Origin: Elusimicrobiota bacterium
Lineage (GTDB): Bacteria; Elusimicrobiota; Elusimicrobia; UBA1565; JACRDR01
Length of the DNA stretch: 27,059 nt
Assembly: GCA_041694815.1 (NCBI GenBank)
Contig: JBGFSC010000015.1
Span: 1-27,059, forward strand
Direction of reading: 5' to 3'
The stretch's first letter is position 1. Every line of letters starts with the position of its first letter. The notes beneath the pieces are model-generated. The model made no database searches and was not told the origin of the DNA. It was given only the letters and a program-made list of their open reading frames with translations. Position numbers and translations under genes: made by a program. Below, one piece after another: positions 8,688-14,759 of this stretch.

Positions 8688-10367
8688 TTGCCCGTCGAAA
8701 AAACCCCCGAAGAGAAGGCGCGCGCCAAACACGTGCATGGGCTCATCATGCTGCTTTGCGGCGGCATATTCATCGCCGCCGGCGCGGCTGCCGGATATCT
8801 GGCCTTCGCGGGCCGCGCCGGCCTCCCGCGCGGCCTCCGGTGGCTGTTTGGCCAGAGATCGGGGATCGCCGCGATACCCTCCTTGGAGGACCGTCCCGCC
8901 GACGCCGAGTCGCCCGTGCGATGGAGCTCCTGGGGCCGGGAAGCCTTCGAGCAGGCGAGGGGTAGCCGCCGTCTGGTATTGCTCCAGCTTAGCCCCCGTT
9001 GGGGGCATTGGACGCATTTGATGGACGCTGAGACGTATTCGGATCCGGCGGTGGCCGCTTGGATCCGCAAGCATGTCGTAGCCGTGAGGCTCGATCCCCA
9101 TGAGAGGCCCGACATCGCCCGGCGATATCTGTCGCGCGTCCCGACCGCGGCGCTGCTGCTGCCGAGCGGAGAATCGCTCTCGCAGGCGGCCTATGTCCCG
9201 TCCGGCCGTTTCCTCGCCTGGGCCGAGCAGGTGTCCGGCAGCGCTCGCAAGTCATGGGACGAGATCGACGCAGCGGCGCGCCGGGCGCGCAAGGCAGCGC
9301 ATGAGAAGGCGGGGTCTCTGCTGGGTCCGCAGCGGGACACCCTCTGGAGACAGATGAGCCCGGCGGAGCGGCGCTCCGCCGCGGAGCGCGCCGTGAGCGG
9401 GGGACTCGCCGCAGCTGAAAAGCTCGAGCAGGCGCCGCAGCGCTTCTTGCGGACGCAGCTTGTCTCCCTGTGGAAGGAGGCCTCTCTGCCGCGGTGGCGG
9501 CGCCATCTTAAAGAATCCCTCCGTCTCGAGGACCCGGTCTGGGGGGGATTCTACCGCTATTCCTCCTGTGCGGACTGGAAATGCCCCGAATTCGAGAGAA
9601 CCTTATCCGGCCAGGCCGCCGCCATCGAATCGCTCGCCCTCTCCGGAGAGCCGGACTTAACCGGGGCTGCGCTCAAGGCTGTCGCCTTCGTCGAACGATT
9701 TCTCAAGCAGAAGGAGGCTTATGCCGACGCGATGGATTCCGATGTCCGTAGGGGCTCTTCCTGGATCGACGGGGCCAGGTATTTCGCCCTAGACGAGCGC
9801 GGGCGTCTGCGGCTCGGCCTTCCCGAGATCGATCGCTCGGCCTACACCGCTCCTAACGCCGAGCTCGCGACGGCCTATCTGTTGGCCGGCAGGGCCATGC
9901 GCCGAGCGCCCCTGCTCGAATCCGGCCTCCGCCTACTGACGGCGCTCGAGCCTCGGATGGATTCCAGAGGCGCCTTACGGCGCCAAGGGTCCGGCGGGCC
10001 GTGCGGCCTACTCGAGGACCAATTGGCGATGGCTCGAGCGGAGTTGGCGGCCTTCGCCTGCACGCGCCGCGAGCCTTATCTCCACAGGGCTCGCAAGGCG
10101 TTGTCCTTCGCGTTGGGGCCGTTGCGCGATCCGTCGACCGGCGGCCTGCTTTTGAAGGCGCCGGAGGCGCGGGTGGCGGGCGATTGGCCCGAAGCCGTGG
10201 ACCCGGACGCCAGCGCGGCGGCGGCGCTTGTGGCCGATGATTTGGCCCGCTTGAGCGGGAAGGAATCAGACGGCAGGCGAGCTCGGGCGATGCTCGAGTG
10301 GGCCATGGCGCGCGAGGGGGCCATCGATCCCGTCCTTCTGGCGCGCGTCGCCCTCAGATTGCGTTAA
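8688..10367 (+). CDS. membrane-anchored DUF255/YyaL (SSP411)-like thioredoxin-domain protein
   Basis: N-terminal TM; SPVRWSSWGREAFEQA...LVLL...WGHWTHLMDAETYSDPAVA..I....VAVRLD..ERPDIARRY; DPVWGGFYRYS...W..P.FER.L. Confidence 0.85.
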   Translation: MPVEKTPEEKARAKHVHGLIMLLCGGIFIAAGAAAGYLAFAGRAGLPRGLRWLFGQRSGIAAIPSLEDRPADAESPVRWSSWGREAFEQARGSRRLVLLQLSPRWGHWTHLMDAETYSDPAVAAWIRKHVVAVRLDPHERPDIARRYLSRVPTAALLLPSGESLSQAAYVPSGRFLAWAEQVSGSARKSWDEIDAAARRARKAAHEKAGSLLGPQRDTLWRQMSPAERRSAAERAVSGGLAAAEKLEQAPQRFLRTQLVSLWKEASLPRWRRHLKESLRLEDPVWGGFYRYSSCADWKCPEFERTLSGQAAAIESLALSGEPDLTGAALKAVAFVERFLKQKEAYADAMDSDVRRGSSWIDGARYFALDERGRLRLGLPEIDRSAYTAPNAELATAYLLAGRAMRRAPLLESGLRLLTALEPRMDSRGALRRQGSGGPCGLLEDQLAMARAELAAFACTRREPYLHRARKALSFALGPLRDPSTGGLLLKAPEARVAGDWPEAVDPDASAAAALVADDLARLSGKESDGRRARAMLEWAMAREGAIDPVLLARVALRLR

Positions 10368-12145
10368 TTTTTCTTTTCCAGCCAGAGTCCGCCCAGCACG
10401 CAGGCGTCCAGTCCGCTTTTTAGATAAGAGGCTATCGCCTCGGCGGGCGTGTGCACGATCGGCTCGCCTTTGAGGTTAAAGGAAGTGTTGAGCAATACGG
10501 GGGAGCCCGTCGATTGGCCGACCCTCTCGATGAGCCGCCAATACGCCGGGTCCGAATCCCGGCGCACCAGCTGCACGCGGGCCGATCCGTCGGCGTGGGT
10601 GACGGCCGGTATGGCCGAACGCTTGGACGGGCGCACATCGGCCGTCAGAAGCATATAGCGGTAGGGGTAGGGGCGCCCGTCCTGTTCGAGCTCGAAGTAC
10701 TCGCCGGCGCGCTCGGCAAGCACCGAGGGAGCGAAGGGGCGGTAAGGCTCCCTGAACTTGATCTTGATGTTGACGATGTCCTTCATTTCCGGCTTCGTCG
10801 GCGAGGCCAGGATGGATCGGTGCCCCAGGGCCCGAGGGCCCCATTCGGCGCGGTCCCGATAGAATCCGATCACCTTGCCGGCGCTCAAGGCCTCCGCCGC
10901 CCGCTCCAGCAGCCCCTCCTCTCCCGGCTCGCTCGCCGCCAGGCCGGCGGCGGCCGCCGCGGCCCGGGCCTGCTCGTCCGAGAAAGCCTCCCCCCAAAAG
11001 GCGTGCTCCATGGCGAATCGGCGCGGCTGCCGGAGCAGGACATGGTGGGCGAACAGGGCGGCCCCCAGCGCCCCGCCGGCGTCTCCGGCGGCAGGCTGGA
11101 TGAATAGCTCCTTGAATCCGGTCTCGCGGAGGATGCGGCGGTTGGCCAGGCAATTGAAGGCGACGCCCCCGGCCATGCACAAGGCTTCGCGCCCCGTCCG
11201 GCGCTGCAGCGCGGACGCCATGGCCACGACCAGGTCCTCGACGACCTTCTGCACGCTGGCGGCGATGTCGGCGTATTCCTGGTTGCGCTCGAGCTCCGCG
11301 GGGGAAGGGGGGGTCGGGTCGTCGTAGAGGCTGGTGCGGGAGGTCACGAAGCGCGCCGAGGGGTCCCTCGGCTCTCCGAAGAGCCTCTCGAAGGCGCGGT
11401 TATACGTGGCATGGTCGCTGTAATGGAAGGAAAAATAATCCATGTTCAGCTCGAAGCTCCCGTCCGGGAAGCAGCGCACCAGCTTGCGGACCTTCTCCTC
11501 GTGGCGCGGGCTTCCGTAGGCGGCCATCCCCATCACCTTGTACTCGCCCTCGTTGACCTCGAAGCCGAGGAAGGCGGTGAAAGCCGAGTAGAGCAGGCCG
11601 ATGGAATGGGGGAAGCGGATCTCCTCTTCGAGCGAAAGGCGGCTGCCGTGCGGGCCGCTGGAGCCGAGCCCCCAGCTGGCCGTCGCCCATTCGCCGACTC
11701 CGTCGATGGTCAAGACCGCGGCGTCGGGAAAGGGGGAGCAGAAAAAAGAGGAGGCGGCGTGGGAGAGATGGTGGTCCACGAAGAGCAGGCGGGAGGCTTC
11801 GATGCCCAGGCGCTCGAGCAGTATGTTGCGGATCCAGAGCTTCTCCGAGAACCAGGCCTGCATCGCCTTGGGGAACACCCTCCAGGAGCGCGGCGCCGTG
11901 CCCACCAAGGTCTGCAGGAGGCGATGGAACTTGGAGAAGGGTTTCTCGTAGAAGACGACGTAGTCGAGATCCTGGGGGCGGCAACCGGCCCGGCGCAGGC
12001 AGAACTCGATGGCGTCCTTTGGGTAATGCGGGTCATGCTTGACGCGGGAATAGGCCTCCTGCATCCCGGCGGCGACCAGTCGGCCGTCCTCCAAGAGGGC
12101 GGCCGCCGCGTCATGATAGAAGCAGCTGATCCCTAGGATGCGCAT
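10364..12145 (-). CDS. carbamoyltransferase, CmcH/NodU family (SxtI-like)
   Basis: MRILGISCFYHDAAAAL, HHLSHAASSF, TIDGVGEW, GEYKVMGMAAYG, AGGVAFNC, PAAGDAGGALGAA, EWGPRALGHRSIL, KFRE.YRPFAPS, H.DGSARVQ, NTSFN. True ATG at 12145 (TGATG coupling). Confidence 0.96.
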   Translation of the reverse strand: MRILGISCFYHDAAAALLEDGRLVAAGMQEAYSRVKHDPHYPKDAIEFCLRRAGCRPQDLDYVVFYEKPFSKFHRLLQTLVGTAPRSWRVFPKAMQAWFSEKLWIRNILLERLGIEASRLLFVDHHLSHAASSFFCSPFPDAAVLTIDGVGEWATASWGLGSSGPHGSRLSLEEEIRFPHSIGLLYSAFTAFLGFEVNEGEYKVMGMAAYGSPRHEEKVRKLVRCFPDGSFELNMDYFSFHYSDHATYNRAFERLFGEPRDPSARFVTSRTSLYDDPTPPSPAELERNQEYADIAASVQKVVEDLVVAMASALQRRTGREALCMAGGVAFNCLANRRILRETGFKELFIQPAAGDAGGALGAALFAHHVLLRQPRRFAMEHAFWGEAFSDEQARAAAAAAGLAASEPGEEGLLERAAEALSAGKVIGFYRDRAEWGPRALGHRSILASPTKPEMKDIVNIKIKFREPYRPFAPSVLAERAGEYFELEQDGRPYPYRYMLLTADVRPSKRSAIPAVTHADGSARVQLVRRDSDPAYWRLIERVGQSTGSPVLLNTSFNLKGEPIVHTPAEAIASYLKSGLDACVLGGLWLEKKN

Positions 12146-12369
12146 CAGAACTGAGCGGAGGCCTCCTCCAAGGACTGGGTCTGGCGGGGCGGGCGGGTCC
12201 AACCCGAGCGGGGATTGAGGCGGACCCGGCAAACGAGGAAGAGGGGAGGGACGACCAGGAAGTAGAGCAGCACCAGCGTCGCCCAGGCCAAAAAGTCGAG
12301 GATGGCGCCGGCGACGCGCGCCCAGGCCCGCCAGAGCGCGAGCAAGACCTCCACGGCGCGGCGGGGCAT
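12145..12369 (-). CDS. SxtJ-like small membrane protein
   Basis: LWRAWARVAGAILDFLAWATLVLLYFLVVPP...SGW......QF resembles the SxtJ C-terminal half; ATG at 12369; typical context next to a carbamoyltransferase. Confidence 0.7.
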   Translation of the reverse strand: MPRRAVEVLLALWRAWARVAGAILDFLAWATLVLLYFLVVPPLFLVCRVRLNPRSGWTRPPRQTQSLEEASAQF

Positions 12370-12371
12370 GC

Positions 12372-12551
12372 TCAAAACAACGTGTAAATGAATGGGGTGA
12401 CGGGGGATTGGGTGGCCAGGAGGATAAGCCCGCAGAAGAGCAGCAAGGTCACGACGAGGGGGATCATCCACCAGAGGCGTTCGCGCCACAGGAAACGGAG
12501 CAATTCCCGAAAGGTCGATCCACGGCCTGCCAAGGACTTAAGCGCCTTCAT
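12372..12551 (-). CDS. DUF5989 / SxtK-like 59-aa membrane microprotein (absent from the ORF track)
   Basis: Translated by hand: MKALKSLAGRGSTFRELLRFLWRERLWWMIPLVVTLLLFCGLILLATQSPVTPFIYTLF; WWxxP and PFIYTLF motifs are family hallmarks. Confidence 0.9.
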   Translation of the reverse strand: MKALKSLAGRGSTFRELLRFLWRERLWWMIPLVVTLLLFCGLILLATQSPVTPFIYTLF

Positions 12552-12603
12552 GCCAAAATTGAAACATTTATGCGACGGAGTGTCTAGCGCCGCGGCCGAA
12601 GCG

Positions 12604-13731
12604 CTAAAAGCCGTATTCCTTGGCCAGGACCCGCATGATCTCGTCGGCGGCGATCCGGTGACCGACTGCGTTCGGGTGGAGCAGGTCCCGGGCGACGAAT
12701 ATCCTCTTGCCGCGGCCGGTCGAGCGCCGGAAGGGCTCGAGAAGGTCCACGAACTCGATGCCCTTGGCGGCCAGATGCCGTCGCAGGAGGCGCTGTGGCC
12801 TCTCGTCGCGGTAGCCCGGCGGAACCTGCAGGGCTACGGGGAATATCACCACCTTGAAGAACGCGCCCCTTTGGCGGGCGGACTCGTGTATCGCCTCGAT
12901 CACCTGGAGGGCGCGCGCCCAGTTCTCTTCCCGAAACATCTCCTCGAAGGCGTGCCGCATGCTCTCGAGGCTCCACCCCTCGAGCTTCTCGTTGCGCTTG
13001 ACGGCCGCGACGGATTCCGGATCTAGGGTGGCGACGAAATCCGAGGCGCTCGCGACTGGCCCGGCCGGTGGCGAGGCGCTCCCCTGGCGGGACCAGAGCC
13101 TCCCGAGCTTTCCCCGCAGGTCGGCCTGGTAAATCAGGAAGTACACGAGCCGGCTCTTGAGCAGCAGATGCTTGAGGCGGAAATGCAGGGGCAGGGGAAC
13201 TCCGGGCGCGAGCAGCGGCAGCGCCAAGGCCTTGGGGGCCGCGTCGTTCATGCACAGGAAAAGCAGCACGCCGTCGGGCTCGAAGCGCCAGGCCTTTCCT
13301 TGCAGGGTGAAATAATAGTCCCAGACATTGTAGCTCGTGGTGCCGAAATTGACGACGCGCAGGAGCTTGCCGCGGGGGAGGCGCTCGTTGACCCTCTTTT
13401 CAATGAGCCGCGGGGCGATCTCCTCGTAGGAAACCCTAGCGCCGTGGGCGATCGAATCGCCCAGGATGGCCAGGCGCCGCTCCCCGGCGGCCCTCGCGAG
13501 GGTGAAATCGGGGCCGCGCATACCCCAGCGGTTGTGTCCGTCCCATCGGCCCTCCGTGTATTCGAAGCGCGCGTAGGGGCGGCCCTCGTAGATGAGGCCG
13601 AAAGTCTTGGAGGCCCGGATCTGCGAGCCCGCGGACCAATTCAGATCCAGGGCGAGACGGCAGGCGAGCTCGGCGCAGGCGAGCCCGAGGAACACCCCCA
13701 GAAGGAGCAGCTTGAGCCTTTGGCGGAGCGT
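12604..13731 (-). CDS. membrane-anchored SGNH/GDSL-family protein
   Basis: LGLACAELACR anchor, NRWGMRG, LGDSIAHG (block I), VVNFG (II), MNDA (III), DLLHPNAVGH (V). Start uncertain: GTG 13695 or in-frame ACG 13731. Confidence 0.88.
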   Translation of the reverse strand, partial: TLRQRLKLLLLGVFLGLACAELACRLALDLNWSAGSQIRASKTFGLIYEGRPYARFEYTEGRWDGHNRWGMRGPDFTLARAAGERRLAILGDSIAHGARVSYEEIAPRLIEKRVNERLPRGKLLRVVNFGTTSYNVWDYYFTLQGKAWRFEPDGVLLFLCMNDAAPKALALPLLAPGVPLPLHFRLKHLLLKSRLVYFLIYQADLRGKLGRLWSRQGSASPPAGPVASASDFVATLDPESVAAVKRNEKLEGWSLESMRHAFEEMFREENWARALQVIEAIHESARQRGAFFKVVIFPVALQVPPGYRDERPQRLLRRHLAAKGIEFVDLLEPFRRSTGRGKRIFVARDLLHPNAVGHRIAADEIMRVLAKEYGF

Positions 13732-13732
13732 A

Positions 13733-14725
13733 TCAGACCTTGACGGATCTCAAGAAACGCGCGTTCTCCTCCGGCAGGGAGGGGTTGATGTACATCCCCG
13801 AGCCGAGCTCGAATCCCGCCGCGCGGCCCAGGCGCAGCACCAGGCTGATGTACCAATGGAAAGGCTCCGTCGTCCCCCGGTCCAAGGGAGTCGACTGGAT
13901 CACGAAGTTGTAGTCCGGGTTCTCGAGCCCCACGTGGAGCTTTTTGAGCACCGTCTGCAGCAGCCCCGCGAGGTCCCGGATCTCCTCGGCGGTGTTGTCG
14001 CCGAAGCTGGCGGCGTGCCGTTTCGGCAGGATCCACAGGTGGAAAGGGGAGAGGGCCGCGAAGGGGACGAAAGCCACGAATCTGGGGGAGTCCGCCACGA
14101 CGCGCTCGCCTTGGCGCAGCTCTTCTTCGACCATCTTGCAGAACACGCATACGCCGTTCTGGTCGTAATACTTCTGGGCTTCGTCCATGCGGTGGCGTAT
14201 ATGGGACGGCACGACGCAGGAGCCGATAAGCTGCGAATGCGGGTGCTCGAGGGAGGTGCCCGCGGACTCGCCGTAATTCTTGAAGAGCAGGGTCAAGGCG
14301 ACCTTGTTGTTCTGCAGCGAGGCGAGGAAGCGTTCCTTGTAGGCGGTCAAGAGGTCGAGCATCTGCTGAGGCTCCATGAGCGCGGGGTGCAGGTCATGGC
14401 GGGGGGAGTCGATGATGACCTCGTGGATTCCCTCGCCGGGGAGGCTGCGGTAGATGGCCTGCTTCGGGCGCTGGCCGGAGGGGGAGGGAACGAGCGCGGG
14501 GAATTTATTCGGCACCGCCCGCACGCGCCAGGCGCCGTTGCCCAGGGTATAGGTGGGCTCGCCGGTCAAGGATTCATTGCCCGGGCAGAACGGGCAATCG
14601 TCCTTTCTAGCCGGGGGGAGCTGCCTTAAGGCGCGGCGGTTCTTGAATTCGTTTGGCTTCTGTGCGCGGTCCTGGGCGATGATCACCCATTCCTTGGTCG
14701 CCAGGTTCTGTCGCAGTTCGGGCAT
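13733..14725 (-). CDS. galT: galactose-1-phosphate uridylyltransferase
   Basis: MPELRQNLATKEWVII, CPFCPGNE, NKFPAL, G.HEVII, NYGESAGTSLEHPHSQ (HxHxQ), AGFELGSG..IN...PE; start 14725 or 14731. Confidence 0.95.
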   Translation of the reverse strand: MPELRQNLATKEWVIIAQDRAQKPNEFKNRRALRQLPPARKDDCPFCPGNESLTGEPTYTLGNGAWRVRAVPNKFPALVPSPSGQRPKQAIYRSLPGEGIHEVIIDSPRHDLHPALMEPQQMLDLLTAYKERFLASLQNNKVALTLLFKNYGESAGTSLEHPHSQLIGSCVVPSHIRHRMDEAQKYYDQNGVCVFCKMVEEELRQGERVVADSPRFVAFVPFAALSPFHLWILPKRHAASFGDNTAEEIRDLAGLLQTVLKKLHVGLENPDYNFVIQSTPLDRGTTEPFHWYISLVLRLGRAAGFELGSGMYINPSLPEENARFLRSVKV

Positions 14726-14759
14726 CGTCACTCTCCTTGTCTATTGCGCTGCTGGGCGG

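Follow-up and report, generated by a model that had tools for sequence, protein, structure and literature searches.

How acyl groups are transferred onto bacterial surface polymers has recently been answered by an acyl-tyrosine shuttle, represented by DltX, PatA, and AlgI and so far tied to membrane-bound O-acyltransferases (MBOATs). FXYXXF has been described as the acyl-shuttle motif; its tyrosine becomes acylated in DltX, PatA acetylates its own, and PatB, an SGNH enzyme, accepts the acetylated form of the peptide FIYANF as a donor (PMC12148441). In L. plantarum, DltX is a protein of ≈49 residues that ends in KFIYNEF; a peptide of this tail is reported to bind DltD through its extracellular domain (Kd ≈2.4 μM), and in an AlphaFold3 model the tail occupies the catalytic pocket of DltD, a protein with one N-terminal helix ahead of that domain (PMC13653941). 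Here, we describe a locus within a 27,059-nt stretch of DNA from an Elusimicrobiota bacterium (contig JBGFSC010000015.1 of assembly GCA_041694815.1; the whole stretch is hereafter called the window) in which a 59-residue peptide of the DUF5989/SxtK family ends in this same motif. Its gene stands in a row with those for an SGNH/GDSL protein, a short SxtJ-type protein, and a NodU/CmcH/SxtI-type O-carbamoyltransferase. Tentatively, and at somewhat under even chances, we read these four genes as a membrane-associated carbamoylation module that would operate through a covalent carbamoyl-tyrosine relay.

A second close parallel is found in the saxitoxin clusters, in which sxtI, sxtJ, sxtK, and sxtL, the last encoding a GDSL lipase, are listed together (PMC2679770, PMC2684587). 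SxtJ and SxtK are given there as proteins of unknown function that are said to act "in conjunction" with SxtI (PMC2679770, PMC2885083, PMC2684587), and SxtL has been proposed as a decarbamoylase (PMC2679770, PMC3037375). Lyngbya wollei does not make carbamoylated toxins; its sxtI is truncated and it lacks sxtL, and the main text of that report makes no mention of sxtJ or sxtK (PMC3037375). The association of SxtI, SxtJ, and SxtK is already known, and by its gene descriptions the SxtI-SxtJ-SxtK(-SxtL) block is the same gene set as in the window. Judged by this gene content, the window quartet is the non-toxin counterpart of sxtL-K-J-I. Unlike the sxt genes, it has housekeeping neighbors (TypA/BipA, an FGGY kinase, and BacA) in place of a toxin cluster, and its SxtJ-type protein is truncated to 74 residues and falls below the Pfam SxtJ model. 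In the open-access literature searched, we found nothing that ties DUF5989/SxtK to the acyl-shuttle motif or to DltX.

The peptide matches the DUF5989 profile (PF19451) from position 2 to position 49 of 49, and a whole-genome search finds a single copy of the family in the window's own genome. The peptide has, as an earlier sequence-only reading of this DNA had described, a basic N-terminus, one transmembrane helix, and the ending PFIYTLF; the helix covers approximately residues 27-47, and the tail after it has 12 residues. A word-based homolog search gave just 6 relatives, and an exhaustive HMMER profile search was used instead; it returned 3799 representative clusters at the 50% identity level (E ≤ 1e-3). 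Among the best 150 of these 3799 clusters, 137 end in F-x-Y-x-x-X, seven carry Leu or Ile in place of the first Phe, and five have a C-terminal extension or a different ending; the Tyr is substituted once, by Ser. We aligned the tails of 135 members, with the window peptide included and 16 of the best 150 with extensions or fusions left out. The consensus at the extreme C-terminus is P-F-[IVL]-Y-x-L-F, and the counts from position −7 to position −1 are P 129, F 128, I/V/L 133, Y 134, T/P/S 124, L 120, and F 123. Neither Phe nor Trp occupies the Tyr position in any member, and the flanking Phe positions vary. Because the Tyr is never exchanged for another aromatic residue of this kind, the alignment points to a functional role for its hydroxyl group.

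The same ending is found in a second sample. We assembled 68 related loci from many phyla by means of two N-terminal peptide patterns, so that the tails themselves were unselected, and an [FL]-x-Y tail is present in all 70 peptides of the 69 loci that result when the window's own is added (two are cut by a contig end). Within the window's genome, exactly one of the 20,722 open reading frames (ORFs) of at least 40 residues ends in F.Y..F, and it is this peptide; at such a frequency, the ending is not a matter of chance. Conservation is highest in a part of the peptide that takes in W27, W28, and P31, juxtamembrane residues on the cytosolic side; a Trp-rich juxtamembrane segment of the form FLWxxxLWWMIP is conserved. 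Weak matches (best E 0.0026) link 73 of the 135 members to Wzz chain-length determinants (PF02706), in their N-terminal cytoplasmic part and first helix, a resemblance that we read as a shared juxtamembrane style only.

Across the 135 members, the peptide contains one hydrophobic 19-mer with a mean Kyte-Doolittle value of 2.71, preceded by a mean of 5.2 Lys and Arg residues vs 0.03 after it, and the tail has a median length of 13 residues. The predicted orientation is N-terminus in and tail outside, as in DltX. A cytoplasmic tail, which would remove the topology problem considered below, was rejected on the strength of this charge bias and of a 21-residue hydrophobic stretch. Helix-less peptides bearing the motif were found neither in the window's genome nor in the 68 loci. 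Overall, the window peptide resembles DltX as a single-pass microprotein of ≈50 to 60 residues with a basic N-terminus inside, a short tail predicted to lie outside, an F-I-Y-x-x-F end, and an invariant Tyr. As in the Dlt and Pat systems, the SGNH partner has one N-terminal helix. The locus differs from the DltX-DltB-DltD, PatA/PatB, and AlgI/AlgJ systems in that it has no MBOAT, and in three further respects: the activating enzyme is an ATP-dependent carbamoyltransferase, so that the cargo would be carbamoyl and not acyl; an SxtJ-type hairpin protein is added; and the SGNH gene adjoins the peptide gene in just about one-quarter of cases.

To compare the tail with those of MBOATs, we took 20 MBOAT regions from peptide-bearing genomes and recovered 16 candidate ORFs. 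Thirteen of these end in F[IV]YF[QVD]F; a Pro directly precedes the motif in three of the 13, and nine have 10 to 14 residues beyond the last hydrophobic stretch, as does the peptide. Set beside these endings and the KFIYNEF of DltX, the FXYXXF motif at the extreme C-terminus of the peptide is of the DltX/AlgI type, as the sequence-only reading had proposed. That reading had also noted the lack of an MBOAT gene in the window. We find no MBOAT (PF03062) anywhere in the window's genome, which is 97.8% complete, none in a Pfam scan of 190 neighbor-cluster representatives, and never one within 3 kb of a peptide gene. Of 50 other peptide-bearing genomes, whose completeness is not known, 22 have an MBOAT and 28 yielded none. 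No MBOAT is involved in the module.

We next consider which genes do accompany the peptide. Partners were scored within 4 kb, and in 37 of the 68 loci the sequence extends 4 kb or more to either side of the peptide gene (full loci). A carbamoyltransferase gene lies beside the peptide gene in 31 of the 37 full loci (53 of all 68), an SxtJ-type gene in 30 (47 of 68), and a member of the window's SGNH subfamily in nine (15 of 68). All 17 SGNH profile matches in the 69 loci fall no more than 2.5 kb from the peptide gene; they adjoin it or lie beyond the SxtJ-carbamoyltransferase pair, sometimes in divergent orientation. In the Marinobacter nitratireducens locus L058, genes for the carbamoyltransferase, the SxtJ-type protein, the peptide, and the SGNH protein follow one another in a row. 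Among 401 genomes sampled from the phylum to which the window belongs, 120 have the peptide and 94 the SGNH subfamily, with a subfamily gene no more than 5 kb away in 26 of the 110 genomes that have a strong peptide match. The SGNH subfamily thus adjoins the peptide in ≈24% of cases in both samples. Counted from the other side, 28 of 150 subfamily genes among the matches listed adjoin a peptide gene, vs ≈0.5 by a rough chance estimate based on a 10-kb span in genomes of ≈3 Mb, which corresponds to a roughly 50-fold enrichment. Among the seven closest relatives of the window SGNH protein in the matches listed, five adjoin a peptide gene. At the level of whole genomes, without correction for kinship, 80 of the 401 carry both genes, 40 the peptide only, 14 the SGNH gene only, and 267 neither; two large families of small genomes that lack both genes inflate this association. 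A hand count in the largest family in which both are common (f3) gave 27 genomes that carry the two together, 7 that have just the peptide, 3 that have just the SGNH gene, and 11 that lack both. These data support a link, far above chance, between the peptide and this membrane-anchored SGNH subfamily, and with it the linkage that the sequence-only reading had put forward.

The same counts bear on a reading in which the resemblance to the shuttle is convergent. The FXYXXF-like end would then be an independently arisen interfacial anchor, and the SGNH neighbors would reflect shared glycan-modification neighborhoods. Aromatic residues are common at membrane interfaces, and no sequence kinship between the peptide and DltX is detectable; the Pfam DltX model (PF12459) has no match in the window's genome. 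The wide occurrence of the SGNH subfamily, mostly away from the peptide, and a co-occurrence inflated by kinship and by small-genome lineages without either gene fit this reading as well. It sits poorly with the rarity of the motif among the ORFs of the window's genome, with a match to MBOAT tails that includes the Pro ahead of the motif in three of the 13 and a comparable tail length in nine, and with the f3 count, in which 27 genomes have both genes and 10 have just one. We consider such a look-alike rather improbable.

The carbamoyltransferase of the window aligns with Carbam_trans_N at 279 bits and with Carbam_trans_C at 219 bits, and it keeps the GPRALGHRS site. Its two-domain architecture and the GPRALG.RS site are those of TobZ, NodU, CmcH, and NovN. 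With the NCBIfam NodU model it scores 165 bits against an equivalog cut-off of 1000 and is therefore not a NodU equivalog. The sequence has no visible membrane segment, and the enzyme appears to be cytosolic. To our knowledge, the characterized TobZ, NodU, CmcH, and NovN O-carbamoyltransferases act alone on soluble substrates. The window-type branch differs in that it travels with two small membrane proteins. Even if the Tyr is not a carrier, DUF5989/SxtK and the SxtJ-type protein are a well-defined and conserved membrane partner pair for one branch of carbamoyltransferases.

The second member of this pair, the 74-residue SxtJ-type protein, is amphipathic near its N-terminus and contains ≈26 hydrophobic residues in one stretch, with a central Pro-Pro and basic residues on both sides. 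It matches no Pfam or NCBIfam model, and the Pfam SxtJ family (PF19588) is unmatched in the genome even at E ≤ 10. A local hidden Markov model (HMM) built from 13 short relatives matches it (Table 1) and also matches forms of 130 to 150 residues, and the ESM Atlas puts one such long form (L035, 150 residues) in clusters that bear PF19588. The assignment of this neighbor as SxtJ-like in the sequence-only reading therefore holds by the local profile and fails by the Pfam model; from the local HMM and the Atlas lead, we take the protein to be a truncated or short SxtJ-type form. Of 49 relatives, 42 carry a net positive charge on either flank of the hydrophobic stretch, and 44 have a Pro inside it. 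The protein probably forms a re-entrant hairpin, its two ends cytoplasmic, that docks the enzyme at the inner face of the membrane. In the window, the ATG of its gene (12369) lies 2 nt past the TGA of the peptide gene, and its stop codon overlaps the ATG of the carbamoyltransferase gene as TGATG. This short gap and this overlap indicate that the three genes are translationally coupled. The overlap also places the start of the carbamoyltransferase at 12145 (MRILG...) and not at the TTG at 12232 given in the ORF list.

Turning to the SGNH protein, we find a complete catalytic set: GDS (Ser81), Gly118, Asn150, and D-L-L-H (His340). In an alignment of 21 relatives, Ser81, His340, and Glu9 are invariant and Gly118 and Asn150 nearly so, and blocks I, II, III, and V of the SGNH/GDSL superfamily are all present. 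The intact Ser and DxxH motifs and the membrane anchor ascribed to this protein in the sequence-only reading are thus borne out. Members of the subfamily have ≈360 to 430 residues and an N-terminal hydrophobic helix. Within this helix, a Glu is invariant in all 21 aligned sequences, and an Arg usually follows ≈4 residues on. The annotated start of the window protein, a GTG at 13695, is doubtful because the frame upstream of it reads RQRLKLLLLGV, which would complete the helix but has no ATG, GTG, or TTG; the true start is probably upstream of 13695 and the membrane helix longer than annotated.

In an AlphaFold2 model (predicted local distance difference test, pLDDT, 82), the protein adopts an SGNH fold into which a helical element is inserted. 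The best match to the model in the PDB is CgnD (8a2n; Z 21.1 over 237 residues, rmsd 3.1 Å, 18% identity), and generic SGNH esterases reach Z values of 15 to 17. A profile search gave E values down to 1.5e-16 for generic esterases, 3.7e-11 for CgnD, 5e-10 for AlgJ, 9e-6 for AlgX, and 0.014 for PatB; the Pfam ALGX model, which the window protein matches weakly (Table 1), reaches 2.1e-10 with a relative. The fold therefore does not tell a transferase from a hydrolase. CgnD belongs to the crocagin cluster, in which a carbamoyltransferase, CgnI, is encoded as well; CgnD has been purified and crystallized and is described as a slow leader peptidase (PMC10070186). We considered CgnD as a sign of a carbamoylation-specific SGNH clade and rejected it; the link is not specific, because a glycosyltransferase replaces the carbamoyltransferase in related clusters (PMC10070186). 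Complex prediction of the SGNH protein with the peptide, both given as alignments and with no control runs, returned ipSAE values of 0.01 and 0.00, which speak neither for nor against binding.

A fold of this kind also fits an account in which no covalent chemistry takes place at the tail. The peptide and the SxtJ-type protein would form a noncovalent scaffold that docks the carbamoyltransferase on the inner face of the membrane, a lipid-linked or membrane-bound substrate would be carbamoylated there directly, and the SGNH protein would be a separate esterase or decarbamoylase that works on that product; the conserved tail would serve as a structural or partner-binding element. We regard this scaffold as quite possible, though well short of even chances. 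The constant partners of the peptide in the full loci are the carbamoyltransferase (31/37) and the SxtJ-type protein (30/37), with the SGNH protein in a minority (9/37), and an SxtJ-type protein that looks monotopic with cytosolic ends is a typical docking element. The presence of W27, W28, and P31 in the best-conserved part of the peptide, on the cytosolic side, agrees with docking there, as the closeness of the SGNH fold to hydrolases and the annotation of SxtL as a decarbamoylase (PMC2679770, PMC3037375) agree with a separate esterase. The scaffold also dispenses with transfer across the membrane. It leaves unexplained why P-F-I-Y-x-L-F is constrained at the exact C-terminus, why Phe and Trp are absent from a position that is Tyr in 134 of 135 members, and why the tail is the motif that lodges in SGNH catalytic pockets in Dlt and Pat (PMC12148441, PMC13653941). 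The rough 50-fold enrichment of an SGNH subfamily with a DltD-like anchor likewise finds no explanation in it.

The covalent relay would account for these features as follows. Tyr56 would carry the carbamoyl group as an O-aryl carbamate, from which Ser81 in the active site of the SGNH protein would receive it. Serine hydrolases are readily carbamoylated at their active-site Ser by aryl carbamates. The SGNH protein would then carbamoylate an extracytoplasmic acceptor, probably a surface glycan or a lipid-linked sugar, and the SxtJ-type hairpin, together with the FLWxxxLWWMIP segment of the peptide, would dock the cytosolic carbamoyltransferase on the peptide. The likeness of the motif to that of the acyl shuttle is what suggests the tail Tyr as a covalent carbamoyl carrier.

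Several observations weigh against this relay. Foremost, no route is visible by which the carbamoyl group would reach the Tyr: the enzyme lacks a membrane segment, and the tail is predicted to lie outside. Of the relay as first proposed from the sequence, the conserved tail, the DltX-like architecture, and the SGNH link stand, and the half that leads from the carbamoyltransferase to the Tyr runs into this topology, which counts against it. The SxtJ-type protein offers little help, since a re-entrant hairpin with both ends inside makes a poor channel; we judge a role as a membrane channel unlikely from its positive flanks (42/49) and its Pro (44/49), and the same features make the trans-membrane adaptor suggested by the sequence-only reading unlikely. 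The location of the SGNH domain outside the membrane is itself weakly indicated, with a net charge of +1.1 before the helix and +0.35 after it, and rests mainly on analogy. The SGNH fold is nearest to the hydrolase CgnD and to generic esterases, and DltD (3bma) ranks 29th in a Foldseek search with the model. When the 135 peptide members are compared at E ≤ 10, DltX is missing from the 25 families (of 100) that they match most frequently, and in a Chloroflexi subgroup of nine loci (L044, L046-L050, and L052-L054) the tail reads FIYSLR and does not end in Phe. The SGNH gene is absent beside ≈76% of the modules, 40 of the 120 peptide-bearing genomes in the phylum sample have no subfamily member at E ≤ 1e-15, and 122 of the 150 SGNH subfamily genes among the matches listed lie away from any peptide gene; two further SGNH paralogs are encoded elsewhere in the window's genome. 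Finally, the carbamoylation of saxitoxin is usually placed in the cytoplasm.

Three ways of loading the Tyr can be envisaged within the relay. Because the helix of the peptide lies near its C-terminus, insertion must come after translation has ended, and loading before insertion is therefore conceivable: the tail may be charged before the posttranslational insertion of what would be a tail-anchored peptide, which would in that event be a single-use carrier. Alternatively, the SxtJ hairpin may meet a re-entering tail in mid-membrane and create the loading site there, or the group may come from another donor.

The last option shades into a reading in which the shuttle is real and its cargo or donor is a different one. 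The Tyr would carry another acyl group, or carbamoyl from an extracytoplasmic or lipid-linked donor, and the carbamoyltransferase would modify a carrier that is then flipped. This would solve the topology problem, and it agrees with the peptide genes that have no adjacent carbamoyltransferase gene (6 of the 37 full loci; for instance, the L016 group described below) and with the frequency of glycan genes (Wzy_C, GT2, GT1, DegT, and pyruvyl transferase) in peptide neighborhoods. Four of five genomes without a peptide-adjacent carbamoyltransferase nevertheless encode one elsewhere, the tight translational coupling of the peptide, SxtJ-type, and carbamoyltransferase genes argues for direct cooperation, and the peptide neighborhoods contain no recurrent flippase or other donor-making enzyme. 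We hold a different cargo or donor to be quite improbable.

The covalent relay would have consequences beyond this locus. DUF5989/SxtK is a very large microprotein family, of unknown function, that has the terminal motif of the acyl shuttle and is coupled to carbamoyltransferases and not to MBOATs. If its Tyr is a carrier, the shuttle principle would be broader than thought, reaching to another chemistry and another loading machine, and a mechanism for surface carbamoylation would be at hand. Roles would follow for SxtJ, SxtK, and SxtL, which have been without a function since 2008, the neighboring GDSL protein included. In its most general form, the proposal is that DUF5989/SxtK proteins are widespread MBOAT-free carbamoyl-tyrosine carriers, possibly loaded before insertion, that bring the group from the cytosolic ATP-dependent enzyme to the outer side of the membrane, and that the linked SGNH proteins, including those of the SxtL type, are terminal carbamoyltransferases and not decarbamoylases or lipases; we consider this wider claim doubtful.

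The genes of the locus and its flanks are listed in Table 1. Five of them lie on the same strand between 10364 and 14731, all placed where the sequence-only reading had them, with the SGNH gene directly upstream of the peptide gene at a distance of 52 nt. Farther upstream of the module are genes for TypA/BipA, an FGGY sugar kinase, and BacA/UppP; downstream are a convergent DUF255/thioredoxin-like gene and a gene with an HNH domain. The outermost of the five genes encodes a GalT-like protein, which had been taken as a hint of a glycan acceptor. We rejected GalT as a part of the module, as a homolog occurs near the peptide in none of the 68 related loci.

Table 1. Features of the locus. Positions are those of the 27,059-nt window; conserved-domain matches are from Pfam and NCBIfam profile searches.
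Feature	Position	Strand	Profile match or remark
GalT-like hexose-1-phosphate uridylyltransferase (HIT superfamily)	13733-14731	minus	TIGR00209 galT_1 107.9 bits, cut-off 102.1; Pfam GalP_UDP_transf 1.2e-18
SGNH/GDSL protein, 363 aa	12604-13695	minus	Lipase_GDSL_2 (PF13472) 9e-14; weakly ALGX 1.2e-3
DUF5989/SxtK peptide, 59 aa	12372-12551	minus	PF19451 63.1 bits, cut-off 27, E 2.4e-17
Short SxtJ-type hydrophobic protein, 74 aa	12145-12369	minus	local profile only, E 4.4e-6
NodU/CmcH/SxtI-type O-carbamoyltransferase, ≈593 aa	10364-12145	minus	Carbam_trans_N 7.5e-83, Carbam_trans_C 2.8e-65
DUF255/thioredoxin-like protein, 559 aa	8688-10367	plus	converges on carbamoyltransferase gene
HNH-endonuclease protein, 201 aa	8082-8687	plus	HNH_5 3.4e-17

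On the downstream flank, the 3' coding ends of the DUF255/thioredoxin-like and carbamoyltransferase genes overlap by 4 nt (10364-10367), and the HNH gene ends where the DUF255/thioredoxin-like gene starts. The HNH region of the 201-residue protein is weakly similar to that of IscB and Cas9d (NCBIfam E ≈1e-10, far under the cut-offs).

Elsewhere in the window's genome, one of the SGNH paralogs (G000:C29:13206-14306, equivalent to L090:5207-6304; E 8.6e-50 with the subfamily profile) is encoded directly downstream of a gene for a 569-residue B12-binding radical-SAM protein, with no DUF5989 gene near it; B12-radical-SAM genes are also found near the module in L039. Among the related loci, an Anaerolineales group (L016, L017, L020, L030, and L042) has a DUF5989 gene without an adjacent carbamoyltransferase gene, the peptide of L016 lying at ≈10001-10183. 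The conserved row in this group opens with two NAD-dependent epimerases, followed by a methyltransferase and an FAD amine oxidase; next come the peptide and a YfhO-like membrane protein of 820 residues. The genomes of L016 and L042, the two examined, encode carbamoyltransferases elsewhere. A conserved hydrophobic protein of 98 residues (cluster c4) is encoded directly after the peptide gene in six of the nine FIYSLR loci.

Variants of the peptide itself were also encountered. A search aimed at longer fused forms found none, which is weak evidence, and three proteins of ≈205 residues among the exhaustive matches (P0039, P0042, and P0122) have an N-terminal multi-hydrophobic domain with no Pfam match ahead of a complete DUF5989 unit with a FIYTL[FW] tail; these may be natural fusions or extended gene calls. 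In L059 (9998-10528), two DUF5989 genes with the tails FIYTLF and FIYPLF stand in tandem after a single carbamoyltransferase ORF of 908 residues.

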